From positions 71,206 to 135,205 of the forward strand of contig JAEELI010000007.1 in assembly GCA_016288795.1 (NCBI GenBank): 64,000 nucleotides of DNA, given 5' to 3'. Below are positions 2,026 through 64,000 of this stretch, one piece after another; position 1 is the stretch's first letter, and the number at the start of each line of letters is the position of its first letter. A program made the translations under genes and the position numbers. The notes below the pieces were generated by a model that was given only the letters and a program-made list of their open reading frames with translations, was not told the DNA's origin and ran no database searches. Source of the DNA: Bacillales bacterium (GTDB lineage Bacteria > Bacillota_I > Bacilli_A > RF39 > UBA660).

Positions 2026-3180
2026 TTAAGAACAATTTGCAAATCCATTGGAAGCTAATTCACACCGGTTGTATGTATTGGTATTTTCAACATAAACATT
2101 TCCTGTCTCAGACAAATTTAAAGATATTGAATTTTTATGGCATTCTAAATAACCATCACTTTGGTAAGTAGAGTTGCATGATAATCCCATGGTTCTCATC
2201 TCGGAATAATATGATGATGCATTGTTCCAGTTATTAGGTGGAATGCAATACTCTACGCCATTCCACTGACCACAAACTTCATCATAACTACCACTTGTAT
2301 ATCCTTTATAGTAATATGTTAACCCTGAAGAACTTGTTAATGGATTAGAAATCCTTTCGTTTGATACATTTGTTGGATCATAAATGTAATAATATCTATC
2401 TGATGCTATGCTACAATTAAAAGTTGGCACCGAAAGCGAAATGGTAATTTCTTTATCTGCTAAAATATTTTGTTCCAAATTACACAAACCGGTAAATGAT
2501 ATGTTTCCATATATACCTTTGTCTCCTAATCTTCTAGCTCCAATAATTGTTCCAGTAACATTTATTGGAAATAAATTGGAAGTATTAAAATCATATTCTC
2601 TATAATTAGAGCAATAATTAGCATAACAGGTTGCAGTATTACGCGGGTTTGTATCAAAATGCAACATTATTTGATTTGAGGTTTTGCTTGCCCAACGTTG
2701 AAAAACAGAATACAGGTTATTAGTTCCAGAAACTGAAGCATTTAAAGTATAATTACAATTATATACTTCATCCCCAGTTACGTTTGTATGCGCTAATCTA
2801 ATTAGCGAAGCGGACTCTACTTCCAAAGGAGTTCCATCGGTTGACCCAAAGTATATTACATCTATTTTATTTAGCAAATACTTTTCAGAGCTATTCTCTA
2901 GAGGAGTTACTCTATATTTTACTGATTTATCATTGGATAACAAACAGTTCATATTTCCTTTCATAATACTGATACCATTAACATTTAATGAAATTGAATT
3001 AGTATCCGGAACTAGTTGAACTCCTCCCATAGATGGAAAAGTTCCTCTAGCTGTTTTTGAACCAAAGCTATTAGTTGAAGTCACATTAAAATAGGCATAT
3101 GATGCCCTGATAATTACTATCAATAGCAGAACAAGAATTAATGAAATACGTATAACTATTTTTTTCCTTTTATCTTTCAT
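2026..3180 (-). CDS. secreted protein, 'AYF-signal' family member 1: TasA/camelysin-like signal and N-domain plus Cys-rich C-terminal cap
   Basis: N-terminus is KKIVIRISLILVLLLIVIIRASYA/YFNVTSTNSFGSKT. The N-domain is paralogous to that of 5521..7209 (YNCNYTLNASVSGTNNLYSVF versus YHCTYTLQISHTGTNDMYNKF). The last ~95 aa hold 7 Cys and end in ..NCS. It has its own promoter, TTGACC-18-TATTAT. Confidence 0.85.
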   Translation of the reverse strand: MKDKRKKIVIRISLILVLLLIVIIRASYAYFNVTSTNSFGSKTARGTFPSMGGVQLVPDTNSISLNVNGISIMKGNMNCLLSNDKSVKYRVTPLENSSEKYLLNKIDVIYFGSTDGTPLEVESASLIRLAHTNVTGDEVYNCNYTLNASVSGTNNLYSVFQRWASKTSNQIMLHFDTNPRNTATCYANYCSNYREYDFNTSNLFPINVTGTIIGARRLGDKGIYGNISFTGLCNLEQNILADKEITISLSVPTFNCSIASDRYYYIYDPTNVSNERISNPLTSSSGLTYYYKGYTSGSYDEVCGQWNGVEYCIPPNNWNNASSYYSEMRTMGLSCNSTYQSDGYLECHKNSISLNLSETGNVYVENTNTYNRCELASNGFANCS

Positions 3181-3264
3181 AAGTATCTCCTTTATTCATA
3201 CTACTATATAAATAATACAACAAAGGACCCCAAGGGGTCAAGACTAACACAAACAATAAAAATA

Positions 3265-5451
3265 TTATATATGTAAGGGGTCAATATCTATATCCAAGTT
3301 GATATCGGGTATATTTAAGTATATATTATCCAATTCTTTTAAAGAACTCATTAAATTATTATCAAATCTATATTTAATAACTATTTGAAATCTATAATTA
3401 TTATTAAATTTAAATAAATTAGCTGTAGTTGGTCCTAAAATAATTGAATTGCTATCTATATGTTCTTTCAAATAATTATATACTTTATTAGCGTGATTTA
3501 ATGCTTTATTATAATCCTTAGAAATAATTTTCAAACTAACTAAATAATAATAAGGTGGATATTTCATAATATGTCTTATATTCATTTCATAATCATAAAA
3601 ATCATCAAAATTATTATCTTTAACACAATTTAAAACATAATTATCTGGGTTATATGTTTGAATCAAAACATTACCTGGAAGAACTGATCTCCCTGCTCTT
3701 CCACTAGCTTGATATAACAAGCTGAATGTTCTTTCATTACTTCTAAAATCCGGAATATTTAAACTACTATCAGCATTTAATATACCGACTAAAGTTACAT
3801 TAGGGAAATCTAGTCCTTTACTAATCATTTGAGTTCCTAATAGAATGTCATACTTTAGATTTTTAAAATCCTCAATTATTCTTTCATGACTACCTTTTTT
3901 AGAGGTAGTGTCTTGATCCATTCTAATAACTTTAGCTTCAGGTAATAGTTTATGTAATTCATTTTCTACTTTTTCAGTTCCTAACCCAAGGTAACTTAAT
4001 CCCTCTTCAAAACAATTAGGACACTTATCTTCTTTTTTTGTAGAATATCCACAATAATGACATCTTAGATTATTAGTAGACTTATGATAAGTTAAAGTAA
4101 TTTCACAATTAGGACACTTATATGTCCATCCACAATTAGAACAAGTAATAGTAGTTGAATACCCTCTTCTATTAAGAAGAATTATGCTTTGTTCTTTTTT
4201 ATTTAGATTATCTTTTAATTTATTTAATAATTCATCACTAAATATAAAATTATGCTTCTTTATTTCAGGAATCATATCTATTATAGATACATTAGGGAGT
4301 ATGCTTTCACCTACTCTATTATTTAATCTAATATGTTTATATACCCCTTTAATAGCTCTAGCTCTAGTCTCTAAAGTAGGTGTGGCACTTCCTAAAACCA
4401 GTGGAGCATTATTATATATTGCTCTTTCTTTAGCTATATCTATCGCATTATATTTAGGAGTATTATCTTGTTTATATGAATCACTATGCTCCTCATCAAT
4501 TATAATAATTCCTATATTTTCTAAAGGAGCCCAAATGGCAGAGCGCGTTCCTACTACTATAGACACTTCTTTTTTTAATATTTTTAAATATTCATCATAC
4601 TTTTCACCATTAGATAAGGCGCTATGGAATATCGCCACTTTGCTTCCAAACCAATCATAAAATCTATTTACTACTTGCATTGTAAGACTTATTTCTGGAA
4701 CTAACATAATTGCAGTCTTACCATTTTCTATCACATTATTTATTAAGTTAAGATAAACTTCAGTCTTACCAGAGCCAGTAACTCCTTCTAATAAAAACAC
4801 CTCGTTTTTAGAACATGAACTAATTATATTATACGCATCTAACTGCTCTTTATTAAGTTTATGTCTACAGACACCTAAATCTTCATTTTTATTTATTCTA
4901 TATACTTGAGTCCATTCCTCTCTAATAAGATCTTTTTCTTTTAAAACATTAATAACATAACTAGAGCATTCACTTTTCAATATTTTTTCTTCTTTAAGTA
5001 ATAATTCTAAAAATTCAGTTTGTTTATTCTTTTTATTATATTCCTGCAAGTAATTATTAATATATTCTTTATCTTTATTTAAAACTATATATTTGTCATA
5101 TTTATTATAATCACTAACTTTATCCTTAATTTTCAATGAGGATGGTAACATAGTTTGATATGCCATAATTAATGGACATAAAGTTTTCTCTTTAACATAC
5201 TTCCCTAATTGCATCAATTCTTCATTTAAAACCAAGTCTTTATCAACTACATCAATTATTTCTTTTAATTCATAGGAATTATCATATTCACTCAAAATAT
5301 TAATTACGAAGCCATTAATTACCCTATTATTAAATGGTATTTGAACTTTCATACCAATTTTAATAATGTTTTGCAAAGATTTTGGAATAGAATATGTCCA
5401 ATATTTATCAATTTTCTTGGCAGGATATTCAATAAGTATTTCTGCAAACAT
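3265..5451 (-). CDS. priA: primosomal protein N' (replication restart helicase PriA)
   Basis: 728 aa with Walker A GVTGSGKT, a DEEH box and two CxxC..CxxC zinc-ribbon pairs (CSNCGW..CPNC, CHYCGY..CPNC). Confidence 0.95.
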   Translation of the reverse strand: MFAEILIEYPAKKIDKYWTYSIPKSLQNIIKIGMKVQIPFNNRVINGFVINILSEYDNSYELKEIIDVVDKDLVLNEELMQLGKYVKEKTLCPLIMAYQTMLPSSLKIKDKVSDYNKYDKYIVLNKDKEYINNYLQEYNKKNKQTEFLELLLKEEKILKSECSSYVINVLKEKDLIREEWTQVYRINKNEDLGVCRHKLNKEQLDAYNIISSCSKNEVFLLEGVTGSGKTEVYLNLINNVIENGKTAIMLVPEISLTMQVVNRFYDWFGSKVAIFHSALSNGEKYDEYLKILKKEVSIVVGTRSAIWAPLENIGIIIIDEEHSDSYKQDNTPKYNAIDIAKERAIYNNAPLVLGSATPTLETRARAIKGVYKHIRLNNRVGESILPNVSIIDMIPEIKKHNFIFSDELLNKLKDNLNKKEQSIILLNRRGYSTTITCSNCGWTYKCPNCEITLTYHKSTNNLRCHYCGYSTKKEDKCPNCFEEGLSYLGLGTEKVENELHKLLPEAKVIRMDQDTTSKKGSHERIIEDFKNLKYDILLGTQMISKGLDFPNVTLVGILNADSSLNIPDFRSNERTFSLLYQASGRAGRSVLPGNVLIQTYNPDNYVLNCVKDNNFDDFYDYEMNIRHIMKYPPYYYLVSLKIISKDYNKALNHANKVYNYLKEHIDSNSIILGPTTANLFKFNNNYRFQIVIKYRFDNNLMSSLKELDNIYLNIPDINLDIDIDPLHI

Positions 5452-5486
5452 AATAATTCTCCTTTATTAGATTATAAATTATAACA

Positions 5487-5513
5487 ACAAAAAAAGAAAG
5501 AAATATCTTTCTT
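5487..5513 (-). terminator. rho-independent terminator after the 5521..7209 gene
   Basis: Minus strand reads AAGAAAG-ATATTT-CTTTCTT followed by TTTTT. Confidence 0.6.
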
Positions 5514-5520
5514 TTAAAAT

Positions 5521-7209
5521 CTAAGTAGTCTTAGTAAATGTTCCGTTACTCCAAGTCCCAGTTACTCTAGTCCATTCTGGGTGAATACCGTTTTTTGAAC
5601 CTTCAAACATACCAGTAAAGTTAGTTACACCAGTAACATTCCAATCATTAATTGCAGATGCATCATCTAAGGATGAAGTTCCAGCAAACATTGCTTGCAT
5701 ATTATTTGCACTTTGAACATTCCAATTTTGCAATCCGTTTAAATTAACTAATCCGCTCATATAAGCGAATGTATTACTAAAATTATTGACACTTGATACG
5801 TTCCATTTTCTTAAACTATTTATTGAAGTTATAGAATCGTTACGCTGAAACATAACAGACATATTATTAACACTAGATACATTCCACGCCAGAAGGGCAT
5901 CTATATTAGCAATATGCATATTTACTAGATTGTCACATCCAAAAATCCCTCGCATATCTTGAGCTGTAGAAGTGTTCCAATTTTCTAAACCATTTAAAAC
6001 TAATAAACTAGTATTACATGAAAACATTGCCTGCATATTAGTAACACTTCCAATATTCCAGTATGATAGTGGTGTTAAATCTGCCAAACTCATTTGAACA
6101 TTATAAGTTCCAGCAAATATTTTAGATAAAGATGCAACATTGGAAACATCCCAATTAGAAAGTGGTGATAAGTTTGTTAAACTTATACTTCCAGCAAATG
6201 CAGATTGTAGTATTGTAACATTTGAAGTATCAATATATTGAAGTCCACTAATATTTACTAAATTTTCAAATCGTTGAAATCCATTTTTTAAAGTTGTATT
6301 TGCTTTTATTACTGAAGCAGGACTGTAATAATATAAAGTTCCATTATCAAACCATACATATATCTTACTATTTGACGATGCATCTTGAACTTCATGATCT
6401 GAAGTAAGAACACTTGCACTTGGTGTTCCACTATATTTTTGGATTGATGTTACGTTAGTATTATTATATGATGCTGCAGTTATATTTGATGCATTATTTG
6501 GCTCAGCAATTTGTTTCATCTTGATATTTAAATCTGGTCCTGGTAAAAGTATTGCATATGGGTTCTCTACTATATCACAATGTAAGGTGTTATTTTTGAT
6601 GGTTACTGTTACGTTAACATCTGTTCCCTGTAATCCATCTTGGTTAATTGTTCTACTATTTATAAATTGTAATCCCGCAGTTATCTCTTGATTGTCTCCT
6701 CCAGTTATATAGAAGTCTCCCTCTACTTCTGTTGGCATTCCACTGTTCCAATCATATCTTTGATGATTTACTATTAACTTTATTTGTTCTGCACTTTTAT
6801 TAGCATAGTTATTGGTAAATTTATTATACATATCATTTGTTCCTGTATGGCTTATTTGTAATGTATATGTGCAATGATAATAGGTTTCATCTGAACTTGG
6901 AGATACTGATGCTATGCCTAGAACCTCTTCATGATTATATGTCTTCTTTCCTGTATTGGATGCAAAATATGATGTTCCAGCATTTTCTTGCATCATATCT
7001 GCTTGATTTAAGGCCATAGTCAAAGATACACTTTGGCCTGTTACGGTCACTGAACCTGTTCCTTCTACGTCTGCTACTATTGTTTTTGTTCCAAAGCTAT
7101 TTGTTGTTGTTACATTAAAATAAGCATAGGTAAGTCCTATTCCTAATACAAGTAGACTAACAAAGAGAATACTTAAATATATTGTTATTTTTTTATTTCT
7201 ATTATCCAT
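5521..7209 (-). CDS. secreted protein, 'AYF-signal' family member 2, fused to a DUF285/BspA-type leucine-rich-repeat domain
   Basis: N-terminus is KKITIYLSILFVSLLVLGIGLTYA/YFNVTTTNSFGTKT. The C-terminal half carries about 9 copies of a ~25-aa repeat (L..WNVSSVTNM..MF), typical of the Mycoplasma DUF285/BspA LRR family. Confidence 0.9.
   Translation of the reverse strand: MDNRNKKITIYLSILFVSLLVLGIGLTYAYFNVTTTNSFGTKTIVADVEGTGSVTVTGQSVSLTMALNQADMMQENAGTSYFASNTGKKTYNHEEVLGIASVSPSSDETYYHCTYTLQISHTGTNDMYNKFTNNYANKSAEQIKLIVNHQRYDWNSGMPTEVEGDFYITGGDNQEITAGLQFINSRTINQDGLQGTDVNVTVTIKNNTLHCDIVENPYAILLPGPDLNIKMKQIAEPNNASNITAASYNNTNVTSIQKYSGTPSASVLTSDHEVQDASSNSKIYVWFDNGTLYYYSPASVIKANTTLKNGFQRFENLVNISGLQYIDTSNVTILQSAFAGSISLTNLSPLSNWDVSNVASLSKIFAGTYNVQMSLADLTPLSYWNIGSVTNMQAMFSCNTSLLVLNGLENWNTSTAQDMRGIFGCDNLVNMHIANIDALLAWNVSSVNNMSVMFQRNDSITSINSLRKWNVSSVNNFSNTFAYMSGLVNLNGLQNWNVQSANNMQAMFAGTSSLDDASAINDWNVTGVTNFTGMFEGSKNGIHPEWTRVTGTWSNGTFTKTT
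5599..6297 (-). repeat. about 9 tandem DUF285/BspA-type LRR units (coding repeat)
   Basis: Recurring units include SNWDVSNVASLSKIF, SYWNIGSVTNMQAMF, ENWNTSTAQDMRGIF, LAWNVSSVNNMSVMF, RKWNVSSVNNFSNTF, QNWNVQSANNMQAMF and NDWNVTGVTNFTGMF. Confidence 0.85.
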
Positions 7210-7269
7210 ACATCCATCTCCGTTATGTTATTAAAATAATAATTCTTTCATTATTCACTATCTATAATG

Positions 7270-7297
7270 ATTATATAATGATACCCCCCCCAGTCAA
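7270..7297 (-). promoter_or_regulatory. sigma-A-type promoter with a G8 homopolymer in the spacer (candidate phase-variable promoter)
   Basis: Minus strand reads TTGACT-GGGGGGGGTATCATTA-TATAAT (16-nt spacer), about 60 nt upstream of the ATG at 7209. The C8 run occupies 7284-7291 on the plus strand. Confidence 0.6.
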
Positions 7298-7341
7298 TTA
7301 ATTCCATGTAAAAGTTTGTTAAAAACTTTTATTTACAAATT

Positions 7342-7366
7342 AAAAAACCTCAATTATGAGGTTTTT
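7342..7366 (-). terminator. terminator after valS (symmetric hairpin)
   Basis: AAAACCTCA-ATTA-TGAGGTTTT flanked by A/T runs. It overlaps the valS stop codon. Confidence 0.7.
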
Positions 7367-9785
7367 ATTCTTCTTCTAAATCTAGTTCAATCTTATTTAC
7401 TTTATAATCTTTATCTTGATCATTTAATATTAAATCTTGAATAAATAATGTAGCTTTAAAGTCTTTGATTGAACTATTGATGGCATCTTTTAAAGACTTA
7501 TTTACACTTATATCTAGAACTTTAATTGGAGTCTTTAGTGATAAGTTTTGATTTGACTTCTCTCCTCTAGCTTGACTAACTATTTCTACTATTAAATCTC
7601 CATTTTTAGTCTCAGATTCAAAATCATATTCTAATGGTTTAATTTCAGTTAAATGAATTGATTTTGAATCACCATATAAAGCACTATAGATCTCTTCAGT
7701 AATAAATGGAAAGAAGATACTAAAATCTTGTAATAATTTATAAAGAATAATATAAATGGTTTTTTGACCAGAATATCTTGGAGTATCACCAAATTCTTCA
7801 GGTCGATATAATCTATGTTTTACTATTTCAATGTAGTTATCACAGAAATTCCAGAAGAATTTCTCTAGGTGATTTAATGCAAGTCCAACTTCATATTCGT
7901 CTAAGTATTTAATAAATCCTTCTTCCATATTTTTAAAACTACCTAATATCCATTTATCTATATATTCAAAGTCATTAAAATCTTTATCTACATAATCTTG
8001 TAAATGCATCTCAATAAACTTAGATACATTCCAAATCTTATTAACTAATTTTCTACCTCTTTGTAAAGTTTCTTCACTAAATACAATATCTGTTCCTAGT
8101 CTACCTGAACCTGCCCAATAACGAATAACATCAGCAGAATAATCACGAATTAAATCTACAGGTTCAACTTTACTATTACCTTTAGATTTACTAATCTTTT
8201 CTCCTTTATTAGCCATTACAAATCCAGATATCATAACATTATCCCAAGGTCTTTGGCCAAAGTGATAAAAACTCTTTACAATGGTATAAAAATCCCAAGT
8301 TCTGATAATTTCTGAAGCATTAGTTCTTAAACTCATTGGCTTTAATATATCTTCATAGTTTTTCTTTTCTCCATATCTCATATTAATTAATGGCGTAACT
8401 GAAGATGTTGCCCAAGTATCCATAACATCTGTTTCAGGAATAAAATTAGTTGATCCACATTTTGGACATTTTTTCACCTTGGGTTTATCTACCAGAGGAT
8501 TTACTGGTAAATCCTCTTTATTAGCAAAGATTGGTTCATTACAATCTTTGCAATACCACACAGGGAATGGAACTCCAAAGTATCTTTGTCTTGAAATACA
8601 CCAATCCCAAGCTACATTATTAACCCATTCATCGTATCTTGCGTGCATATGTTCTGGATGCCATTTTATTTCATTACCAATTTTAATAAAATCTTCTTTA
8701 TGATTCATAATATCTATGAACCATTGTTTCATAACTGAATATTCTACTTCTCTACCACATCTCTCGTGAGTTTGAACTTCGTGTTCTAACTCCTCAATCT
8801 TAACTACGTATCCACCATTTTGTAAATCTTCAATAATAGCCTTACGAGCTTCTTTTATCTTCATTCCACCATAATTAGGAACTGAATCTATTATTTTACC
8901 ATCTTCAGTAAAAATATATTTTAATGGTAAATTATACTTTTTCCAACATTCAATATCTGTTTGGTCTCCAAATGTACAACACATAACTACTCCAGTTCCT
9001 TTATCAATAGCAACTTTTTCATCAGCCATGATTGGAACTTCAATATCTAAAACAGGAATATGTGCAGTTTTACCTATTAAGTGATTATGTTCTTCGTCTG
9101 AAGGATTAACAAAAACGCATACGATAGCTGGAATAAGTTCTGGTCTAGTCGTAGCTATGGTGAATATTTCTCCATCAGTAGTAGAAAAATTAATATAATT
9201 AAATGTAGTCTTAATAGTTTTAGTTTCTAATTCAGCTTGAGCAATGGATGTTAAACATTCATTGCACCATAGCGCTGGACTTTCTTTGTGATAACAATGA
9301 CCCTTAGATACTAAATCCAAAAAAGATAATTGACTAATTTTTATTGTAGAAGGACTAACAGTTTTATAATGAATACTCCAATCAGTAGATACGCCCATAG
9401 AACTAAATAAACTTTGAAAATCAGCTTCATATTTATCAGTTGTGTCATAACATAATTTCGAAAATTCTTCTCTACCTATTTCATGAGCTTTTAATCCTTG
9501 TTCTTTTTCAACTAATCTTTCACTAGGTAAACCATTATCATCGAATCCAAATGGATAGAATACATTATAACCTCTTAGTCTTTTATATCTAGCCATCATT
9601 TCTGTTTGGGAATAAGAAAATATATGGCCAATATGGATATTACCACTTACAGTTGGCGGTGGTGTATCTATAGAGTAAACTTCTCTTTTATCTGGTTTAA
9701 ATTCATATATCTTATTATCTTCCCAATATTGAACCCACTTTTTTTCATTTTCCATAGCATTATATTTTTTTTCTAATTCTTTCAT
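7365..9785 (-). CDS. valS: valine--tRNA ligase
   Basis: Class I motifs PPPTVSGNIHIGH (HIGH) and KISKSKGN (KMSKS), plus the CP1 editing region. I place the start at MKELEKKYNAME (ATG 9785, GGAAAGGA RBS). The 21 upstream codons in the ORF track lie inside the T-box terminator. Confidence 0.93.
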   Translation of the reverse strand: MKELEKKYNAMENEKKWVQYWEDNKIYEFKPDKREVYSIDTPPPTVSGNIHIGHIFSYSQTEMMARYKRLRGYNVFYPFGFDDNGLPSERLVEKEQGLKAHEIGREEFSKLCYDTTDKYEADFQSLFSSMGVSTDWSIHYKTVSPSTIKISQLSFLDLVSKGHCYHKESPALWCNECLTSIAQAELETKTIKTTFNYINFSTTDGEIFTIATTRPELIPAIVCVFVNPSDEEHNHLIGKTAHIPVLDIEVPIMADEKVAIDKGTGVVMCCTFGDQTDIECWKKYNLPLKYIFTEDGKIIDSVPNYGGMKIKEARKAIIEDLQNGGYVVKIEELEHEVQTHERCGREVEYSVMKQWFIDIMNHKEDFIKIGNEIKWHPEHMHARYDEWVNNVAWDWCISRQRYFGVPFPVWYCKDCNEPIFANKEDLPVNPLVDKPKVKKCPKCGSTNFIPETDVMDTWATSSVTPLINMRYGEKKNYEDILKPMSLRTNASEIIRTWDFYTIVKSFYHFGQRPWDNVMISGFVMANKGEKISKSKGNSKVEPVDLIRDYSADVIRYWAGSGRLGTDIVFSEETLQRGRKLVNKIWNVSKFIEMHLQDYVDKDFNDFEYIDKWILGSFKNMEEGFIKYLDEYEVGLALNHLEKFFWNFCDNYIEIVKHRLYRPEEFGDTPRYSGQKTIYIILYKLLQDFSIFFPFITEEIYSALYGDSKSIHLTEIKPLEYDFESETKNGDLIVEIVSQARGEKSNQNLSLKTPIKVLDISVNKSLKDAINSSIKDFKATLFIQDLILNDQDKDYKVNKIELDLEEE

Positions 9786-9789
9786 ATTA

Positions 9790-9955
9790 TTTTCCTTTCC
9801 ATAAAAATAAGAAGGTGGTCCAAAGGGCGAATATATCCGCGGTACCACCTTCTTTTATTACTTTAAACTTTAACGCATTTCTGCTTTTATACTATTCAAG
9901 CAACCAATATATTCTAGTTTATTAGTTTCCACCAACCACTAACTCTCTTTTAAAC
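9790..9955 (-). promoter_or_regulatory. T-box leader (Val) upstream of valS
   Basis: Minus strand shows AGAGAGTTAGTGG stem I, a candidate specifier GUU followed by G (..ATATTGGTTGCTTG..) and the T-box core AAGGTGGTACCGCGG (9837-9851). The terminator is GAAGGTGGT..ACCACCTTC followed by a T-run. Confidence 0.8.
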
Positions 9956-10028
9956 ATCAAATATATACCTCTTGAGGTCTTTGTATAAATCGTTGTTATT
10001 TTATCAAATAATAATAAATAATTCAACT

Positions 10029-10946
10029 CTAATTAATTATATTAACTACTTCATTATTAACTACTATTTCTAATTTTTCTTCATTCATTCTAATTGTTGT
10101 GCTATCGTCTATATTATTTATATCTACAGAAGACACATAATCGTAATCTTTTGCAGCATATACATACATATTAGTATCAGTAAGTATTGCTAAATAAGAA
10201 CGAACACCAACAACTTTATTAATCTTATAATTCGTAAATGCTGGATTATTTTCATAATCAAATACTTTGTATTGATCTCCTTCTTTGATTGCTACATAGT
10301 AGTCATTAAAATCAACAATTGGATTTTCAAATTTACTTGTTATAACTGAACCACTATCATCTACAACATACCAACCATCTTCTTTTTTTACTATAAACTT
10401 ATTAGTTATTAATTCTCCTTTTTCATTAAACTCATTTTTTAAACCAATGAAATCATACTCAAAAGGAATATGTGAGGCTAAAACATCTTTTATACTTAAA
10501 ACTCCCCATTTATCATTTTCATTTTGAACTATAACATAACCAGACTCTAACTTAGTCCCATAATATTTAATATTTTTGTATTCAGTTAATGGCTTAGTTG
10601 AATCAGCTTTAACAGCATACAACATTTGCTTATCACCATCAGTGATAAATGTAAAACTAGAGTTATTATAATCTAAAAGTTCTTTTCCATCTTTATAGTA
10701 ATGAATACCATATTCTTCATCATCTATAATACCTTTAGCTATTCCACATTCTTTTGTTAAACAAGTATATTTACATATTAGTTTATCATTCTTGTCATAG
10801 AACCAAAGCTTCCCTTGGAAATTAAATTTCTTTTCTAAGTTATCACTTTTCTTAGGAACTTTTACTATAGCTCCATATATGGAAGCCGGTAGGAAAAAGC
10901 ATAAGAGAACTATTATCACTACTAGAACTATCTTCTTATTCTTCAT
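10029..10946 (-). CDS. membrane-anchored WG/KWG-repeat protein (small)
   Basis: N-terminal TM segment, then WG-type beta-repeats (DKWGVLSIKD, DGWYVVDDSG). The start overlaps the upstream gene by 11 nt. Confidence 0.75.
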   Translation of the reverse strand: MKNKKIVLVVIIVLLCFFLPASIYGAIVKVPKKSDNLEKKFNFQGKLWFYDKNDKLICKYTCLTKECGIAKGIIDDEEYGIHYYKDGKELLDYNNSSFTFITDGDKQMLYAVKADSTKPLTEYKNIKYYGTKLESGYVIVQNENDKWGVLSIKDVLASHIPFEYDFIGLKNEFNEKGELITNKFIVKKEDGWYVVDDSGSVITSKFENPIVDFNDYYVAIKEGDQYKVFDYENNPAFTNYKINKVVGVRSYLAILTDTNMYVYAAKDYDYVSSVDINNIDDSTTIRMNEEKLEIVVNNEVVNIIN

Positions 10947-32596: not shown

Positions 32597-33508
32597 ATGA
32601 ATAAAGGAAAAGAATATTTCACAATTATTTCTATATTAATTATATATATTATAGTATTTAAATATAATTATATTTTAAATACTAGTATCATGGATGCAAT
32701 GCATCTCTGGTTAACCAAGTTATTTCCTTCTCTATTTATTATGTTTATATTGAGTAATATTACTATTACAAGTGGCATATTAAAGAAAATTACATCTCCA
32801 TTAAATAATTCTTTTAATAGAATATTTAAAACTAATGGAGATGCCTTTGAGTGTGTTTTAATATCTATTATAAGTGGTTGTCCAACTTCTTCCTTAATTA
32901 TAAAAGAAATGTTAAATAATACAAGAATAGATGAAAGAACCGCTAATAATCTATTAACTTGGGCATTTTGGACTAATCCTTTGTTCTTGTATAAAGTATT
33001 GACAATTATTTTCAATAAATCTATCACATTTAAAATAATTATTGCCCATTATATTACTCCTTTTATCATTGGTATTACTAGTCCAAGCAATTATAAAGAA
33101 AATATGTGTATAAATAATAATAACTTTACTAATCCCGTAAAGTGTCTTCCTAAGGCTATCAATGAAGCCATGAAGACTATGCTGATGATACTAGGAACTA
33201 TTACTTTTTATATGATTATTACTAATTTAATAACTGTATATTTAAAAGATAGTATTATATTAACTGCAGTGGTAAAGGGGTTATTAGAAATAACCCAAGG
33301 GTTAAATAGTTTAATAAATATGAATGGGAGTCCAATAATAAAAGAGATTATTGCTTTAACAACAATCTCCTTTGGGGGGTTATCTATTCATACCCAAGTT
33401 AATTCAATCATATCAGATTCAAAATTAAATTATAAATATTTTCTTCTAGGAAGAATTAAACATACTCTCTATAGTTTAATAATCTTCCTATTGCTTAAAA
33501 TACTTTGA
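32597..33508 (+). CDS. ylbJ: YlbJ-like integral membrane protein (nucleoside-recognition/Gate domains)
   Basis: Polytopic, 303 aa. Its adjacency to ylbL mirrors the Bacillus ylbJ-ylbL neighbourhood. Confidence 0.65.
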   Translation: MNKGKEYFTIISILIIYIIVFKYNYILNTSIMDAMHLWLTKLFPSLFIMFILSNITITSGILKKITSPLNNSFNRIFKTNGDAFECVLISIISGCPTSSLIIKEMLNNTRIDERTANNLLTWAFWTNPLFLYKVLTIIFNKSITFKIIIAHYITPFIIGITSPSNYKENMCINNNNFTNPVKCLPKAINEAMKTMLMILGTITFYMIITNLITVYLKDSIILTAVVKGLLEITQGLNSLINMNGSPIIKEIIALTTISFGGLSIHTQVNSIISDSKLNYKYFLLGRIKHTLYSLIIFLLLKIL

Positions 33509-56764: not shown

Positions 56765-59700
56765 TTATTTATGAATACAAGTCTTATACGTTACATCGCA
56801 GTTGCTACTACCGGATGAATAATAGCATGTTGTATTTTTATAACATTTCTCTTTTGAATCACTGTAAGTATAACCAGAAGCACAATCGCCACACGTTGCA
56901 TAGTCACTCTTTGCCCAATCATGTAATCCATCATGATTTTTTTGGTCTTGGCAATAAGTTACCGCTTTATCTTTTGTTGAACAACTTGCACATGAATATT
57001 TTTTCAAAGTATCAAAATCGGCATATTTTGTGCAACTATAACTACAATCTTCTGATTGAACCCCACAGGCCGAATTACGCGATTTTGTAACTGTAATACT
57101 TGTTTCTTTCCAATTGCCAGCAGCATCGCGACACGCTAAATAATATGTTCCTCCCGATGTAAGATTCTTTGTTATTCCCGAGCCACGAAGACTACTTATA
57201 CTAGTTGTTGTTGTAATATCATCTAGAGAACTCGGATTACTTGTTCCCCAATAATATTTAGTAACCCGAACATTGTCAGAGCACTTAATAAGAACAGTAG
57301 ATTTAGCATTTGTGCCCGTATCTACTATGGTAAAGTTTGAGATTGATGGGCTTGGTTTTCCTGTATCTTTAAATGTTACCGAAATAGTTTTTGCTTCAGT
57401 TATACCATCACCTGTTACTGGACTTGTTGAACCAGTAACATAATCTCCTCCCCAAGATTTTATTGAAAATCCTGTTTCACCAGTTGCAGTTAATTTTAAT
57501 TTTTCGCCATATCTTATGTCTTCAACGGTTGCAGTATTTCCTGCTGAAGCTGTTGTTGTTCTTGAAGTTCTCGAAGTTGACTCTGCTTTTAAAGAACCAT
57601 TTGCACCAGCCGAAATAGTTATATCAAATAATTGTCTCCAGAAATACATATAATAAGTTGTTCCATTTGAAACTGTTGGTGCAGTTGTTGATACTGTTGC
57701 ACTACTCGCTGTGAATGAAGTTGCATATCCTTTAAATGAACCTCCACCAGTCGGCTTAGTATAAACACTCGATAAAGTAAGTGATGTTCCACTCTTTATA
57801 GTATATGTTCCAGAACTCTTTTGGGTATAAGATTCTGTACTATAATCAGCTTGTTTTCCAGCAATATTTAACAAAACATTATTAACTGAATAACTAACTA
57901 ATGTTATACTTGTTGAATCCCAATTTCCTGCAGCATCTCTACATCCCAACCAATAGGTTCCAGCAGCACTTTCAGATTTTTCTAAACCTGATCCAGTTAA
58001 TTTTGTCAAATTAGCCGCAACTGAACCATTCATACTGGTTTCAGATGTAGGTTTAGTTGTGCCCCAATAATATGCAGTAACACCGACATTATCACTACAC
58101 TTCAATGTTAAAGTTTGTGACGAAGACTTTAGTGTTGTTCCACCAGTCAATGACAGTGTTGGCTTTCCTGTATCTTTCCATGAAGCTGTTATCGTTTTAT
58201 CAGCTTTAATCTCTCCTCCAGTTTTAGGAGAAGTTGAACCACTAACATATCCTCCAGTCCAAGAATTCAATGAATAACCACTATTACCAGTGGCTGTAAC
58301 CTTAACAGCCTCGCCATATCTAATACCAGTTATACTTCCATTTTCACCTGAATTAACTGTAACCTTTTTACTACTTCTAGATGTAGAAACTGCGTCAACC
58401 TTTCCTCCGGTTTCACTATTAACAGTTACAGTATATGTAAGTCTATTAAACCACATATAATATGTTCCATTATTTGAAACAGTAGGCGCTGTTGAACTAA
58501 CTGAGGCAGCAGATGTTCCAAATGATGTTGAATATCCTTTATAGCTTCCTCCTCCAGCAGGTTTTGTATAAATGCTTGCTAGCGTCAAAGATGTTCCACT
58601 TTTTACAACATAGCTATTAGAAGAAGCCTCTGTATAATTAGCATTGGTATATGTATCTGCAGTGCCAGTTATATTTAATAATAAATTTTTTACTGTATAA
58701 CTATTTAAAGTTATACTTGTTTTTGCAAAATTACCAGCACCATCACCGCAGCCTAACCAATATTTTTTTGCATCTGATTCATTTTTTTCTAAACCATTGT
58801 CACTAGTTATTTCAGCTAATCTTGCTGCTACTTTCCCATTCAAATCACTGTAACTATTTGGTTCATTCTCACCCCAATAATATGCAGATATACCAGATAA
58901 TGAATCTTTACACTTCAATATAATTGATTGAGAAGCTGATTTTAATGTTGTTCCACCAGTAAGAGATGGTGTTGGATTACCTTTATCAAGTTTCATAACA
59001 TATGCTACTTCATCACTACAAACCGCGCCATTACATGCTTTTATATAATATGTAACACCTGCACTATCTGTATCAGTAGTTCTAGTAAAATAATACATTT
59101 TTTTGTTTGAATCATAGTTAGTTATCTCTGTGTCATCTTTTCCATCACGCCTGAAATAATACTTAATCGTTCCTGATGATACTGTTGAGCCTCCTACTAA
59201 TATATCAGAAGAATCTCCACCATGCCATTCACCGCTTGCTTTGCCATCTCTTGCTTCAACTTTTGGTTTGCCTGGCCTATCAATAACAGTTACTGAAATA
59301 TATTTATATAAAGAACCATTACTTAATTTTACTTTTATTATTGCAGTTCCTGGGCCAATTCCAGAAATCGTTATTTTTTGATTTGTTCCGGTTCCAGTTT
59401 TTGAACATGTTGCAACCGAAGTTGTTCCGGATGTGCACGTAACTGATTCGCTTACTGGTATTGATATTGCACTAGAAGTTTCATCTTCAGCAATTGATAA
59501 TGAAGATATTGAAACATCTTGGTTCTTATAATTTCCAGCTGTATCTTCAACATGAACATAATAATTACCAGAAGGCTTTGCGACTTCATATTTTACTGGG
59601 CTACTAGGAGTATCATATGTATTATCCCAAGTAGTTGGCTTAGAACTGCTTTTATTTACCGCATCTTTTTTTATCATTGATAAACTATCACTTAGTCTTA

Positions 59701-61309
59701 TTGCTAGTTTACTACCATCATAATCAAGTTCAATATCAGGTTTTACATTATCAACTCTTGCACTAAACGAAGCAGTACTAGAAGATAGACCAGATAAACT
59801 AGTAATTTGATATATAAATTTATATTCTCCAGTAACCGAATTATAACTAGTTATTTTGGTTCCACTAGTTGCTGTAGCATTTGGTGTACAAGTTGTCCCA
59901 GTTGTTTGACAATACTTAATTGTACAAGTTGAACCACATTCAGATTCAGTTAACTTAAATTCTAATCCTTTAGTTGACCAAGTTCCACTTGTAATAGAGG
60001 TTGTTTCACCAGTTTTATTAACAATTAAGGAAACCTTAGGTTTAACAATATCAACATTAACCTTAAATCCTGTTGGTGTGGAAGAAAGTCCAGCATTACT
60101 TTCTATCATATATCTTAAATACCAGGTTCCTGTTAAATCTGAAGGATAATCCGTATCTTTATTATATATTCCAGCTCCATTTTCAGTTGATGTTCTAGGA
60201 TCACATGTATTATTTCTATCCCAACATTTATATATCTTACATCCACTTACTCCACATGTGTTTTCACTAAATCTAAATGTTACTTTTTCATCAGACCATG
60301 TTCCTGATGTTAACAAAGTTCCTGATGTAGTCTTTTTAACAGTTACGGATACTGAAGGAGTAACTAAGTCAAACTTAGCGTGATAACTTCCTTCAGATGA
60401 TAAACCTAAATTATTTGTAATTTTATATCTAATATAATAATCTGTTGTAATTGTATTATAGGTAGTTATTCTTGAGCCATTATAAGTAATATTTGGTGTA
60501 CATGTATCATTTGTATCTTTACAATACTCTATTGTGCAATTAGTGCATGTAGTTGTAAACATATAATCTCTACCTACAGATGACCAATTTACCTCTGCAA
60601 TTTCTTCATTTGTTCCTTTTTTATATGATGCCACATTAGCTATTGGAACCCTTGTATCTAGTTCTACTGTATCACTTTTACTTGAAACATTTTCAGCATC
60701 ATCTTTAACAAACAAATATCTAGTAAAAGTTCCATTATCAGCTTCATCTAAATAGTAATCAGTTGTTATTACTCTTTGAATGCGCTCTTCATCAGTAAGT
60801 TTTACCCATTTATCGTTGCAACTAGTTGCACTACTAGTTTTACTAATACAATAGTAATTCACATCATCACTATCTAATTCTATATATGCTTCTGTATTTT
60901 TTTTACCAATAATCTCTGGATTATTTAATCCACCTATAAAAAAAGTTTTAATTACTGGGGGAACACTATCTCTTTTAAAATATAAATAACAAAAAGTCAT
61001 TTGATAATTATTAACATATGCCTCTTTTTCTCTCCCATCAAATAACAAAACTTGTTCATTAATTTTATTTCCTGCAGTATCTTGACAATATGACATTTCA
61101 TCATTAAATTTATAGCCACTTTGTGGCCATACTGAACTAGTAGTTTTGTCATATTCATGACTCTCGCTATTTTCTAACAATATTGCAAATTTATCTTTAG
61201 TAACAAATTTGTATTTTATAGGTTTATTACTATAATTAGTGTTGAATAATAATAAAACTGACATAATCATTACTATTAAAACTAATAACATAGCCATTTT
61301 CTTTTTCAT
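56765..61309 (-). CDS. giant (1514 aa) secreted or membrane-anchored modular adhesin-like protein with Cys-rich C-terminal cap ending KTCIHK
   Basis: N-terminal hydrophobic anchor, then a 2-Cys domain, three 4-Cys modules and a Big_2-like domain (ATCSKTGTGTNQKITISGIGPGTAIIKV). A 'GEWH' module and 2.3 copies of a 270-aa repeat follow, the latter containing Listeria-Bacteroides-type (Flg_new-like) units (GYSLNSWTGG, GFSIKSWGG). A 105-aa cap with 18 Cys ends the protein. No LPXTG motif or C-terminal TM segment. Confidence 0.9.
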   Translation of the reverse strand: MKKKMAMLLVLIVMIMSVLLLFNTNYSNKPIKYKFVTKDKFAILLENSESHEYDKTTSSVWPQSGYKFNDEMSYCQDTAGNKINEQVLLFDGREKEAYVNNYQMTFCYLYFKRDSVPPVIKTFFIGGLNNPEIIGKKNTEAYIELDSDDVNYYCISKTSSATSCNDKWVKLTDEERIQRVITTDYYLDEADNGTFTRYLFVKDDAENVSSKSDTVELDTRVPIANVASYKKGTNEEIAEVNWSSVGRDYMFTTTCTNCTIEYCKDTNDTCTPNITYNGSRITTYNTITTDYYIRYKITNNLGLSSEGSYHAKFDLVTPSVSVTVKKTTSGTLLTSGTWSDEKVTFRFSENTCGVSGCKIYKCWDRNNTCDPRTSTENGAGIYNKDTDYPSDLTGTWYLRYMIESNAGLSSTPTGFKVNVDIVKPKVSLIVNKTGETTSITSGTWSTKGLEFKLTESECGSTCTIKYCQTTGTTCTPNATATSGTKITSYNSVTGEYKFIYQITSLSGLSSSTASFSARVDNVKPDIELDYDGSKLAIRLSDSLSMIKKDAVNKSSSKPTTWDNTYDTPSSPVKYEVAKPSGNYYVHVEDTAGNYKNQDVSISSLSIAEDETSSAISIPVSESVTCTSGTTSVATCSKTGTGTNQKITISGIGPGTAIIKVKLSNGSLYKYISVTVIDRPGKPKVEARDGKASGEWHGGDSSDILVGGSTVSSGTIKYYFRRDGKDDTEITNYDSNKKMYYFTRTTDTDSAGVTYYIKACNGAVCSDEVAYVMKLDKGNPTPSLTGGTTLKSASQSIILKCKDSLSGISAYYWGENEPNSYSDLNGKVAARLAEITSDNGLEKNESDAKKYWLGCGDGAGNFAKTSITLNSYTVKNLLLNITGTADTYTNANYTEASSNSYVVKSGTSLTLASIYTKPAGGGSYKGYSTSFGTSAASVSSTAPTVSNNGTYYMWFNRLTYTVTVNSETGGKVDAVSTSRSSKKVTVNSGENGSITGIRYGEAVKVTATGNSGYSLNSWTGGYVSGSTSPKTGGEIKADKTITASWKDTGKPTLSLTGGTTLKSSSQTLTLKCSDNVGVTAYYWGTTKPTSETSMNGSVAANLTKLTGSGLEKSESAAGTYWLGCRDAAGNWDSTSITLVSYSVNNVLLNIAGKQADYSTESYTQKSSGTYTIKSGTSLTLSSVYTKPTGGGSFKGYATSFTASSATVSTTAPTVSNGTTYYMYFWRQLFDITISAGANGSLKAESTSRTSRTTTASAGNTATVEDIRYGEKLKLTATGETGFSIKSWGGDYVTGSTSPVTGDGITEAKTISVTFKDTGKPSPSISNFTIVDTGTNAKSTVLIKCSDNVRVTKYYWGTSNPSSLDDITTTTSISSLRGSGITKNLTSGGTYYLACRDAAGNWKETSITVTKSRNSACGVQSEDCSYSCTKYADFDTLKKYSCASCSTKDKAVTYCQDQKNHDGLHDWAKSDYATCGDCASGYTYSDSKEKCYKNTTCYYSSGSSNCDVTYKTCIHK
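57083..58978 (-). repeat. 2.3 tandem copies of a ~270-aa super-repeat (coding repeat)
   Basis: PSLTGGTTLKSASQSIILKCKDSLSGISAYYWG... and TLSLTGGTTLKSSSQTLTLKCSDNVGVTAYYWG..., plus a third partial copy SISNFTIVDTGTNAKSTVLIKCSDNVRVTKYYWG. Confidence 0.85.
59735..60649 (-). repeat. three tandem ~100-aa four-cysteine modules (coding repeat)
   Basis: TCTNCTIEYCKDTNDTCTPN, TCGVSGCKIYKCWDRNNTCDPR and ECGSTCTIKYCQTTGTTCTPN, each followed by ..Y.(I/L)RY.I.(N/S).GLSS. Confidence 0.85.
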
Positions 61310-61404
61310 AACATCACTCTAATTCTATCTATTCATATTAATTTTAATTGTTTTTAAAAGTATAGTCAAGCATATAAAAAGGAGATTATTCATCTCCTTT
61401 AGTA

Positions 61405-64000
61405 TTATTTATGAATACAAGTCTTGTTTGACGTTGTGGTTGATGTTGTTTTGCAATAATAATCATCACTAGTATACGAGCGCCAACTGCTATTTATGCT
61501 AGAACAACTACTATATCTTGATTTACAACATATTCCTTTTCCGCCACATACAACACCATATTTACTGCCTATTCCTTCACACGCGCTATTTCCAGGATTA
61601 GTTGTTTGTCCACTTGCATATAATTCACAACTAGAATAAATATATGAACCGGATTGACAATAAGATCCTCCTGAACTATATTTCTTAGCTTTTCCAGTTG
61701 TGGTAGTTGATGTTGTTGTTCCACAAGCAGAATTTGCTGATTTTGTAACAGTAATACTTGCTTTATCCAAGTTTCCAGCAGCGTCTTTACAGCCAAGATA
61801 ATATGTTCCTCCTGCGGTAATTTCTTTTTCTAGCCCTGACGAACTTTTTACGGATGAAATGCTTGTTGTGGTTGTAGTATTTGAAACCGTTGGAGTAGTT
61901 GTTCCCCATTTATAAGCAACTATTCCTGATAATGAATCGCTACATTTTATTTTTACTGATGATTTGGCTGAACTTCCTGTCGTTTCTATTGTGAAATTGG
62001 TTATTGATGCCGATGGATTATCTTCATCGTATTTCAACAAATAAGTTGCTTCTGCACTACATAAATCTGCATCACCAGAGTTACATGCCTTTACATAGAA
62101 CGTTAATCCTGAAGATGTTGTATTAGTGCCTCTTGTAAATGAATCTCCTGTTTTAAGTTCTGAATTACTACTATTATATCTATAATATACTACACTACCA
62201 GGACCAGCACTAATAGTTGAACCTGAGAATGATAACGTAAAACTACTCTTATGCCAGTTTCCACTCGAGATTCCATCTGATGCTGATATTGTTGGTTTTG
62301 ATGGAGCAATTCTGACATTAACTGGTCTAACAGCAAAGATAGATCCTTCAGAACTTTTAAGATAAATATAAGCAGTTCCTCCACCTTTTCCAGTAATTGT
62401 AATACTCCAAGAGCCTGATGAACCCCCAACAGAACATGCTGCAATAGATGTATCTGAAGATGCGCAAGTAATATCTTCTGTTCTTGATGAAGTTAATGAT
62501 GTTGTGTCTCCTTTACTTATTGTCGTCGCTGCCAATAAATGCACAAATTCATAATTAGTTTTGCCTACAGCATCTTTTGCATATATTCTTATCCAATCAT
62601 CAGATTGAGTTGTTGCAGATATTGATTTAGATGCAGTTGCACTAAAGGTAGTTCCCCATGTTGATGGGACAGAGCCTGTATTCGTAGTGTTTCCTTGAAT
62701 ATCATAAGCAACTACTCCGGATGCACCATCAGAAACTGTTGCGCTATATTTTGTTCCATTGTGACCAATTACTACTATTGGTTTTGTTTGATCCATCTTC
62801 ATTACATAAGAAACTTCTGAACTACAAGCATTTTCTGTATCTAATGAGTTACAAGCCTTAACATAGAATGTTAATCCCGCCATAGCTGTATCCGCTGTCC
62901 TAGTAACAGAACTTCCAGTAACTAAATTTGAATTACCACTATTATATCTTATATATTTAACCGTTCCACTACCGTTAGATATGGTAGATCCAGAGAATGA
63001 TAAGGTTGTATCTGCTGTATGCCATTCACCACTTGCCTTTCCATCTGAAGCTGTTATAGTTGGTGCGCTAGGTTTTGCAATCTTGGTTGTAACATTTTTA
63101 ACCATATAATCGGAACCGTTTGTTGCTTGAGCTTTAACTAAAGCAGTTCCAACAGCATTTCCAGTAACTGTAAATGTCCAGGTTGACCCTTCTTTCTCGC
63201 CTACACATGTTGCAACAGATGTGTTCGAAGAAGGACATTCGGCAACTAAAGCTGCACCAGAGGTGAATGTTGCCGTTCCTCCAACCGGAACAGAAAGAGT
63301 GGTAACATGAACTCCTCTATATGATATATTACCAAGCTTATCTTTAGCGTGAACATAAACCCATCCACTAGTATGACTTGTTGATGATATTGTCTTAGAA
63401 GATGTTGCAGTAAATGCTGTTCCCCAATCAGTTGGTTCGTCTTTCGTTGTATTTATTACTAAATTTGTTATTCCCGATTGACTATCGGTCACAGTTCCAC
63501 TATAGGAACTACCGGTATGAGTAAGAACTATAGCAGGTCCTGAATTATCTAAATACATATCGGCGCTAGCAAGTCCTGCATTTGCTGCTAAAGTGCTTCC
63601 AGCTACGTCACTAATAGCAGCTTTATTACAAACATATAAACTTCCAGCTCCAGTTCCTGAACTAATTGTTACAGAACCTGTTGCACTCTTATTTCCTGAT
63701 TGTCTTGTTAACGTTGTTGAATCAGTCATATCAGCACATGCTACTGATGTTTTAGACCATTTATAATAAACTGTATAGGATGCTGAACCTAATCCTGAGG
63801 TTGCATCCGATAAAGTAATAGTTGCTGATTTTTCTTTCGCATATGTCGTTCCACTAGATACAGAGACACTTAATGCTGGTGCTACAGCATCTTTTTTCAT
63901 TGCATAAGATGCTGTTCCACTACATACAGTTGTATCTAATGAACTACATGCTTTGAAATAATATGTAACACCATCGGTATTTGCTGTTACCGAAGATGCA
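61405..64000 (-). CDS. second giant modular adhesin-like protein (5' end outside the window) with a paralogous Cys-rich cap ending KTCIHK
   Basis: The frame stays open upstream of the track's ATG (63900) to the window edge (..TYYFKACSSLDTTVCSGTASYA-MKKD..), completing another 'GEWH' module, so the true start lies beyond 64000. It has the same module set as 56765..61309. The last 21 nt of the two genes are identical (AAGACTTGTATTCATAAATAA). Confidence 0.88.
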   Translation of the reverse strand, partial: ASSVTANTDGVTYYFKACSSLDTTVCSGTASYAMKKDAVAPALSVSVSSGTTYAKEKSATITLSDATSGLGSASYTVYYKWSKTSVACADMTDSTTLTRQSGNKSATGSVTISSGTGAGSLYVCNKAAISDVAGSTLAANAGLASADMYLDNSGPAIVLTHTGSSYSGTVTDSQSGITNLVINTTKDEPTDWGTAFTATSSKTISSTSHTSGWVYVHAKDKLGNISYRGVHVTTLSVPVGGTATFTSGAALVAECPSSNTSVATCVGEKEGSTWTFTVTGNAVGTALVKAQATNGSDYMVKNVTTKIAKPSAPTITASDGKASGEWHTADTTLSFSGSTISNGSGTVKYIRYNSGNSNLVTGSSVTRTADTAMAGLTFYVKACNSLDTENACSSEVSYVMKMDQTKPIVVIGHNGTKYSATVSDGASGVVAYDIQGNTTNTGSVPSTWGTTFSATASKSISATTQSDDWIRIYAKDAVGKTNYEFVHLLAATTISKGDTTSLTSSRTEDITCASSDTSIAACSVGGSSGSWSITITGKGGGTAYIYLKSSEGSIFAVRPVNVRIAPSKPTISASDGISSGNWHKSSFTLSFSGSTISAGPGSVVYYRYNSSNSELKTGDSFTRGTNTTSSGLTFYVKACNSGDADLCSAEATYLLKYDEDNPSASITNFTIETTGSSAKSSVKIKCSDSLSGIVAYKWGTTTPTVSNTTTTTSISSVKSSSGLEKEITAGGTYYLGCKDAAGNLDKASITVTKSANSACGTTTSTTTTGKAKKYSSGGSYCQSGSYIYSSCELYASGQTTNPGNSACEGIGSKYGVVCGGKGICCKSRYSSCSSINSSWRSYTSDDYYCKTTSTTTSNKTCIHK
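62020..63543 (-). repeat. two tandem ~255-aa super-modules (head domain, Big_2-like domain, 'GEWH' module), with a further partial copy upstream
   Basis: Paired segments: GPAIVLTHTGSSYSGTVTDSQSGI / KPIVVIGHNGTKYSATVSDGASGV; SVATCVGEKEGSTWTFTVTGNAVGTALVK / SIAACSVGGSSGSWSITITGKGGGTAYIY; DGKASGEWH..LTFYVKACNS / DGISSGNWH..LTFYVKACNS. Confidence 0.85.

Follow-up and report, generated by a model that had tools for sequence, protein, structure and literature searches.

Simple-sequence contingency loci have been documented mainly in pathogens such as Neisseria, Haemophilus, Campylobacter, Helicobacter, Treponema and Mycoplasma. In porA of N. meningitidis and tp0126 of T. pallidum, a poly-G tract between the -35 and -10 elements sets their spacing, with an optimum of 17 nucleotides, and expression is graded instead of being simply on or off (PMC7864442). 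Additional poly-G tracts of about 8–11 nucleotides are located just upstream of, or overlap, the -10 element of T. pallidum tprE, tprG, tprJ and tprL, where a nearby transcription-factor site acts together with tract length (PMC7864442). Among the Mollicutes, insertions and deletions in the promoter spacer turn transcription of vlp, maa2 and vmm on and off, while the T-tract next to the -10 element of vpma in M. agalactiae is not a switch; a homopolymer next to a -10 box therefore does not always act as one (PMC2268961). 'Ca. Mycoplasma girerdii', which is uncultured and related to the Mollicutes, has a large repertoire of BspA-like surface-protein genes that are switched by simple sequence repeats and were detected in metagenomes, whose consensus shows many of the copies to be 'off' (PMC5476646).

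The locus described here resembles porA and tp0126 in carrying a G homopolymer within the sigma-70-type spacer of a putative promoter for a surface protein gene. Tract lengths match as well, with 8–11 nucleotides in this lineage and 7–11 in T. pallidum (PMC7864442). In contrast to porA and tp0126, the locus belongs to an uncultured gut commensal of the Bacillota, involves proteins of the DUF285/PARCEL and BspA-type LRR families, and is known from sequence alone. A further difference is that the run abuts the -35 element in our locus and the -10 element in most of its relatives.

The window, that is, the whole stretch of DNA analysed, is 64,000 nucleotides long and contains 27.7% G+C. On the minus strand, positions 7297..7270 read TTGACT-GGGGGGGG-TATCATTA-TATAAT. 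The -35 hexamer TTGACT (7292..7297) matches the consensus at five of six positions and the -10 hexamer TATAAT (7270..7275) at all six. The 16-nucleotide spacer between them consists of a G8 homopolymer (7284..7291; C8 on the plus strand), which directly abuts the -35 element and is the proposed slippage-prone element, and of the remaining TATCATTA (7276..7283), in which TAT follows the G run directly, as it does in most relatives. A preliminary description of this DNA had reported this arrangement, and both its sequence and its coordinates proved exact. It had also called the tract the only G/C homopolymer longer than 6 nucleotides in the 64 kb, which a homopolymer count confirmed, the second-longest run being a G6 at 33374-33379. 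With eight uninterrupted G residues the tract falls into the slippage-prone class (about 7–8 or more for G/C). Computed spacers are 15 nucleotides for G7, 16 for G8, 17 for G9 and 18 for G10, in keeping with the earlier statement that gain or loss of one G would give a spacer of 17 or 15 nucleotides. A coding-tract reading of the window G8 was ruled out by stops in all six frames. An Rfam scan of positions 6900-7700 returned no credible RNA family. The stretch that leads from the G run to the -10 element (7267-7282) forms a near-palindrome, ATGATTATATAATGAT, with 90% complementarity and an overlap with the -10; it may be a chance feature of AT-rich DNA or a second operator.

A promoter consensus scan of positions 5000-10500 ranked the TTGACT/TATAAT pair first among sigma-70-type matches (11/12). 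A weaker alternative, TAGATA-17-TATTAT (9/12), lies just downstream. Taken together, promoter-like sites show no enrichment in this region (37 found versus 38.7 expected), so the hexamers on their own prove little. This bears on the possibility that the G8 is a chance or neutral feature of AT-rich intergenic DNA with no role in expression. The tract is a single G8 in one assembly; between 0.04 (independent bases) and 0.08 (Markov model) G/C runs of at least 8 are expected per 64-kb window, and some would therefore be met across many windows, while promoter-like hexamers are common (37 in 5.5 kb). However, a random run would fall within the spacer of an 11/12 promoter in only about 0.1% of cases. 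The preliminary description had judged a chance occurrence at this exact position unlikely, and these figures agree with it. The comparisons with relatives described below weigh on the same question.

Upstream of the tract is the housekeeping gene valS, encoding valine-tRNA ligase (7365..9848, minus strand; NCBIfam PRK13208, E = 1.8e-302; Pfam tRNA-synt_1). The gene ends in an intrinsic terminator on the same strand (7343..7366), in which a fully complementary 10-base-pair stem, AAAAACCTCA/TGAGGTTTTT, is followed by a T-run. Because this terminator lies 3' of valS, the next gene requires a promoter of its own, and the putative G8 promoter, the only strong one in this interval, lies in the gap that separates the terminator from the RBS and start codon of that gene. 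As read from the sequence, the RBS is GGAG (7218..7221, minus strand), 8 nucleotides ahead of the ATG (7209). The gene (5521..7209, minus strand) encodes a DUF285/PARCEL-repeat (BspA-like) surface protein of 562 amino acids with an N-terminal signal anchor (...GIGLTYAYFNVTTTNSFG). The assignment, for which the preliminary description had already given DUF285/BspA-LRR and secretion, rests on this anchor and on matches to PF03382 (DUF285; E = 1.8e-39, 134.7 bits against a curated cut-off of 25) and TIGR02167 (PARCEL repeats; 66 bits against a curated cut-off of 30). There is a resemblance to SipW-dependent signal peptides (TIGR04088), with scores of 6.5 bits for the window protein and 12–13 bits for its relatives that fall below the threshold of 19. 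priA follows the DUF285 gene.

Between the valS terminator and the -35 element we found an inverted repeat, TGTAAA-N19-TTTACA (7307..7337), that occurs nowhere else in the 64 kb. It is likely the counterpart of a more compact palindrome that precedes the poly-G promoters of relatives, and is possibly a regulator site.

A paralogue of 384 amino acids is encoded at 2026..3180 (minus strand). It shares the same N-terminus (...ASYAYFNVTSTNSFG) and is preceded by a promoter, TTGACC-18-TATTAT, that lacks a long tract. The -35 of this promoter (within 3181-3264, minus strand) is embedded in the priA terminator hairpin (GACCCCTTGGGGTC), and its spacer is G+C-rich and free of homopolymers. The preliminary description had spoken of two other family members without tracts; the absence of a tract holds for this paralogue, but it is the only one we found in the window. 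Two large genes at 56765-63900 probably encode further surface proteins, of 1514 amino acids (one InlB B-repeat match) and 831 amino acids (no Pfam match). That giant genes have ordinary promoters, another of the earlier statements, was upheld for the 1514-amino-acid gene, for which TTGACT-17-TAAAAT follows a terminator and contains no long tract. Open reading frames of at least 120 amino acids are nearly all on the minus strand of the window, and the plus strand contains 11036 C and 6678 G residues. Together, these biases indicate a single replichore with a strong gene-strand bias. Every poly-G tract that we have seen, here and in relatives, places the G residues on the sense strand of the gene it precedes.

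Judged from its valS relatives, the window derives from a lineage of uncultured low-G+C gut Bacilli. The corresponding MAGs carry the labels Bacilli bacterium, Ca. Onthousia, Ca. Ventrenecus and Firmicutes CAG:822, come from ruminants, rabbit, chicken and human, and presumably belong to the GTDB order RF39. In a set of 5.8 billion clusters, the DUF285 protein forms a singleton, its nearest relative being 46% identical. The sole other contig of the species in the collections searched (L001, JGI sample 3300041006, 1767 nucleotides) is 99.6% identical and stops 12 nucleotides upstream of the ATG, which leaves it 63 nucleotides short of the G8 tract. Exact-protein look-ups with the DUF285 protein, valS and PriA for other assemblies returned only this JGI contig, and a tract-spanning DNA pattern of variable length had no matches in metagenome contigs. 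Scans of genome and metagenome contigs anchored on valS gave a best match of 89% identity, and hence no contig of the same species, and in none did this DUF285 gene follow valS. The three closest homologues of the DUF285 protein (44–46% identical) have plain promoters without tracts, which shows that the tract is not essential to the protein family.

The lineage as a whole was surveyed in 165 sequences (1.48 Mb, 27.6% GC) of related gut Bacilli, mostly anchored on valS. G/C runs of 5, 6, 7, 8, 9 and 10 nucleotides were found 177, 16, 3, 1, 3 and 1 times. A Markov model over-predicts runs of 5–7, and runs of 6–7 are no commoner than chance. In contrast, there are four runs of at least 9, where the model predicts about 0.3. 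The five runs of at least 8 are the window G8, a G10 in L048 and a G9 each in L062, L008 and L127. In L048 the promoter is TTGACA-17-TATAAT, a perfect match (12/12). In L062 it is TTGACG-18-TAAGAT, scored 9/12 by script, with the run adjoining the -35. The L008 promoter, TTGACT-19-TATGAT, comes directly after a terminator and before a gene for a 513-amino-acid LRR protein with the N-terminus ...SSTYAYWQVTK. For four of the five runs, then, the flanking elements are a TTGAC-type -35 and a -10-like hexamer; three of these sites score at least 10/12, and that of L062 scores 9/12. Only 0.94% of strand positions could accommodate an 8-mer within a spacer of this type at a score of at least 10/12, and 5.1% at a score of at least 9/12. 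The location of four of five runs in promoter spacers is far beyond chance. In an unbiased set of 860 open reading frames from the survey with enough upstream sequence, a G run of at least 8 was present upstream of two of the seven that carry the N-terminal signature and of none of the other 853 (Fisher p = 5.7e-5). BLAST searches of all loci with the sequence flanking each tract recovered no second, orthologous copy for L008, L048, L062 or L127.

The fifth run is a coding one. In L127, the open reading frame at 724-2116 contains a G9 at 753-761 and, as assembled, stops after 14 amino acids; with G8 or G11, the same ATG leads into a protein of 463 amino acids that carries the same N-terminal signature, with a TM helix and TYAVFTSD. 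It is a classic contingency gene of the frameshift type, assembled while OFF. Two pseudopilin-like genes (with the N-termini MNKKGFTLMEIIV) lie immediately downstream of it, and L127 is the closest valS relative of the window (89%).

Four sequences, L008, L165 (another contig of the L008 genome), L166 (a relative of roughly 94% identity) and L168, were used to define a poly-G cassette. It precedes all six BspA-type LRR genes (LRR_5, PF13306) examined in L008, L165 and L166, and consists, in order, of TGTAAAGTTTACA, a terminator hairpin with T8, TTGAC(T/A), 7–10 nucleotides, G8–G10, TATG(A/C)T, an RBS and then MEKNKRNKIIGLS; a conserved signal-peptide region forms part of it. At these loci the cassette tracts are the only G/C runs of at least 6, and neighbouring housekeeping genes are without them. 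L168, from a further species, has a terminator, TTGACA, 9 nucleotides, G11 and TATAGT before a gene for a 606-amino-acid LRR protein. This G11 is the only G/C run of at least 6 in 21.8 kb, and an adjacent LRR paralogue has no tract.

A compact palindrome, TGTAAA-N0-4-TTTACA, occurs 12 times in 1.56 Mb, and in 9 of the 12 cases a G run of at least 8 follows within 75 nucleotides. Such sites are at L008:4302, L165:1268, 9905 and 13061, L166:4247 and 11479, and L062:6604. The repeat looks operator-like. All elements of the cassette are present in the window, including the TM helix and the (S/T)YA(Y/L/V)(W/F) N-terminus. However, the geometry of the window copy differs. Its repeat arms are 19 nucleotides apart and its G run is next to the -35, as in L062, rather than the -10, with 7–8 nucleotides separating the run from the -10 in these two; both arrangements keep the run inside the spacer. 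The window tract seems to represent a single member of a cassette system found across the lineage.

In relatives, this placement recurs at roughly 10 independent loci; wherever the downstream gene is visible, it encodes a surface protein, and the run lies either ahead of the gene or within its 5' end. Such recurrence is difficult to reconcile with a neutral G8, as is the cassette inverted repeat at the window site itself. We consider a chance origin quite improbable.

Tract-bearing LRR and DUF285 genes are inserted singly between housekeeping genes rather than gathered at one locus (window 2026-9848; L165, L166, L168 and L084). Aminoacyl-tRNA synthetase genes (valS, ileS, proS and a class Ic synthetase) are strikingly frequent neighbours of these genes, and hisS is located at 475-1737 in the window. 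In L166 (5995-8296) and L167 (1937-4238), the LRR gene is followed by a spoIIGA-like gene (Peptidase_U4) and two sigE/sigG-like sigma factor genes, which suggests that part of the lineage carries sporulation genes. L166 and L167, one strain from two samples, have the same G10 and G9 tracts. Their sequences agree at 100% over 7.7 kb, however, which makes the pair uninformative as to tract length. At L166:4326-4335 (L167:268-277), G10 is followed by ATGCT where paralogous cassettes read G9-TATGCT. The run was apparently extended here by a T-to-G substitution that also damaged the -10 element, and tracts might arise or decay in this way.

Length polymorphism is seen at the locus of the 606-amino-acid LRR gene (P0077-type), for which the proteins of strain variants are 97–99% identical. 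In six contigs from six assemblies, the orthologous promoter tract is G11, G9, G9, G10, G9 and G9. Tracts differ even where the protein is identical (G10 in L171, G9 in L169 and L170), and a flank variant is common to L168 (G11) and L173 (G9). An alignment of all six contigs over 2.9 kb contains 79 substitution columns, and its only internal indels are two columns in the G tract. The same is true of a 4.2-kb alignment of four contigs with 93 substitution columns. Four A/T runs of 7 in the alignment of the polymorphic promoter are invariant.

Homopolymers are error-prone, and the data are MAG or metagenome consensus sequences, so the runs or their length differences could be sequencing or assembly artefacts arising from two-colour poly-G signal or homopolymer miscalls. 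Three contigs end within about 30 nucleotides of a tract: L048 (end 7628) stops 31 nucleotides after its G10, L062 (end 6678) stops 27 nucleotides after its G9, and L171 begins 19 nucleotides before its G10. The start of L001, 63 nucleotides from the window G8, is a further case. This tendency of contigs to break near tracts may reflect heterogeneity of the tract or loss of read quality at poly-G. Artefactual poly-G is usually terminal and much longer, whereas the tracts described here are internal, 8–11 nucleotides in length, flanked on both sides by conserved elements and reproduced across independent assemblies and samples. The invariance of the A/T runs in the same alignment also argues against miscalls, and we regard an artefact as very improbable.

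Another reading is that the G run is a conserved promoter element with a fixed role, such as a G+C-rich spacer that adjusts promoter strength or DNA melting, or part of a regulator site acting with the TGTAAA..TTTACA repeat, and that the differences in length are tolerated noise. The run is a conserved part of the cassette, mostly with TAT immediately behind it, and the tracts come with a specific palindrome. The poly-G of T. pallidum tprL, which overlaps the -10 region, acts without spacing (PMC7864442). In addition, consensus spacers in the relatives range from 15 to 20 nucleotides without clustering at 17, a length they seldom have, which leaves room for a role independent of spacing. Either the assemblies captured most copies at a low or off setting, or hexamers other than those assigned are sometimes in use; a scarcity of 17-nucleotide spacers would follow if, in the majority of cells, expression of most family members is low or off, as reported for the BspA-like genes of 'Ca. 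M. girerdii' (PMC5476646). A fixed role, however, needs no homopolymer, yet every case consists of at least eight G residues without interruption. It also gives no reason for the tract to be the sole site of internal indels in strain comparisons over 3–4 kb, and the coding G9 of the same lineage is plausible only as a frameshift switch. On balance, a fixed role seems unlikely.

Invertons are common for the surface structures of gut bacteria, and the gene could be switched by another mechanism, for example an invertible promoter segment, with the G run being incidental. The best flanking repeat pairs are only 12–13 nucleotides long, 85–92% complementary, AT-rich and imperfect, and a recombinase gene is absent among the neighbours (valS and priA). 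Such a mechanism is extremely improbable here.

In the reading that we favour, the G8 tract is a porA/tp0126/vlp-type switch that alters phase or volume by strand slippage. We consider this likely on the comparative evidence, which supports the candidate switch through -35/-10 spacing that the preliminary description had put forward. The TTGACT/TATAAT pair would serve as a sigma-A-type promoter for the DUF285/PARCEL-repeat surface protein, and the G8 run would be the hypermutable element of this contingency promoter. Slipped-strand mispairing during replication would add or remove a G at high frequency. Since the run is predicted to set the spacing, G8 (16 nucleotides) would be sub-optimal and G9 (17 nucleotides) optimal, while G7 (15 nucleotides) and G10 or longer (18 nucleotides or more) would be weak or off. 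Single-G steps would thereby raise or lower transcription, as a volume control, and a clonal population would always be mixed in its expression of the adhesin-like protein, through stochastic and reversible phase or volume variation. The assembled G8 state is probably sub-maximal. As it lies at the short end of the G8–G11 range, it should also be the least mutable.

A broader proposal is more tentative, and we hold it to be somewhat less probable than not. The lineage may possess a 'phasome', in which a modular 5' cassette is distributed over many scattered LRR and DUF285 adhesin genes and generates combinatorial variation of the Vlp type in walled or gut relatives of the Mollicutes; the window tract would be one visible copy. 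A regulator bound to the palindrome would overlay the stochastic switch with deterministic control, and cassettes with tracts would spread between paralogues by recombination. In the Vlp family, a conserved 5' module is joined to divergent mature regions. The paralogues of the relatives are similarly built, sharing promoter, leader and signal peptide but diverging in the mature region.

There are also differences from the Mollicute systems. The repeats are poly-A in M. hyorhinis vlp and TA in M. mycoides vmm, with a further example in M. arthritidis maa2, whereas here they are poly-G in a genome of 28% G+C. The genes stand alone among housekeeping genes rather than in one cluster, and in place of lipoproteins with a lipobox they encode LRR and DUF285 proteins with a signal anchor and no lipobox evident in the sequence. 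In 'Ca. M. girerdii' the repeats are mostly dinucleotides inside open reading frames and the switch is translational (PMC5476646). In contrast, the window homopolymer lies in a promoter and would act on transcription if it is a switch, L127 being the one coding example. The Gn-TATGAT geometry of the relatives and the TGTAAA..TTTACA repeat recall tprE, tprG, tprJ and tprL. However, the mechanism at tprL is stated not to be spacing, while the geometry of the window fits spacing, and the involvement of a regulator here is purely inferred.

In the accessible portion of the literature that pairs RF39 with phase variation, the only item was a metagenomic survey of Crohn's disease with incidental mentions. 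The switch proposed here would be of a known kind but not previously described in this lineage. If the interpretation is correct, abundant uncultured low-G+C gut Bacilli would share with those pathogens a means of bet-hedging, applied to the large LRR/DUF285 family of adhesin-like proteins, and their surfaces would vary from cell to cell in a way that is hidden in consensus MAG sequences. Some breaks in metagenome assemblies would also be explained. Moreover, a G run of at least 8 in a genome of 28% G+C would be a simple marker for genes involved in host interaction.
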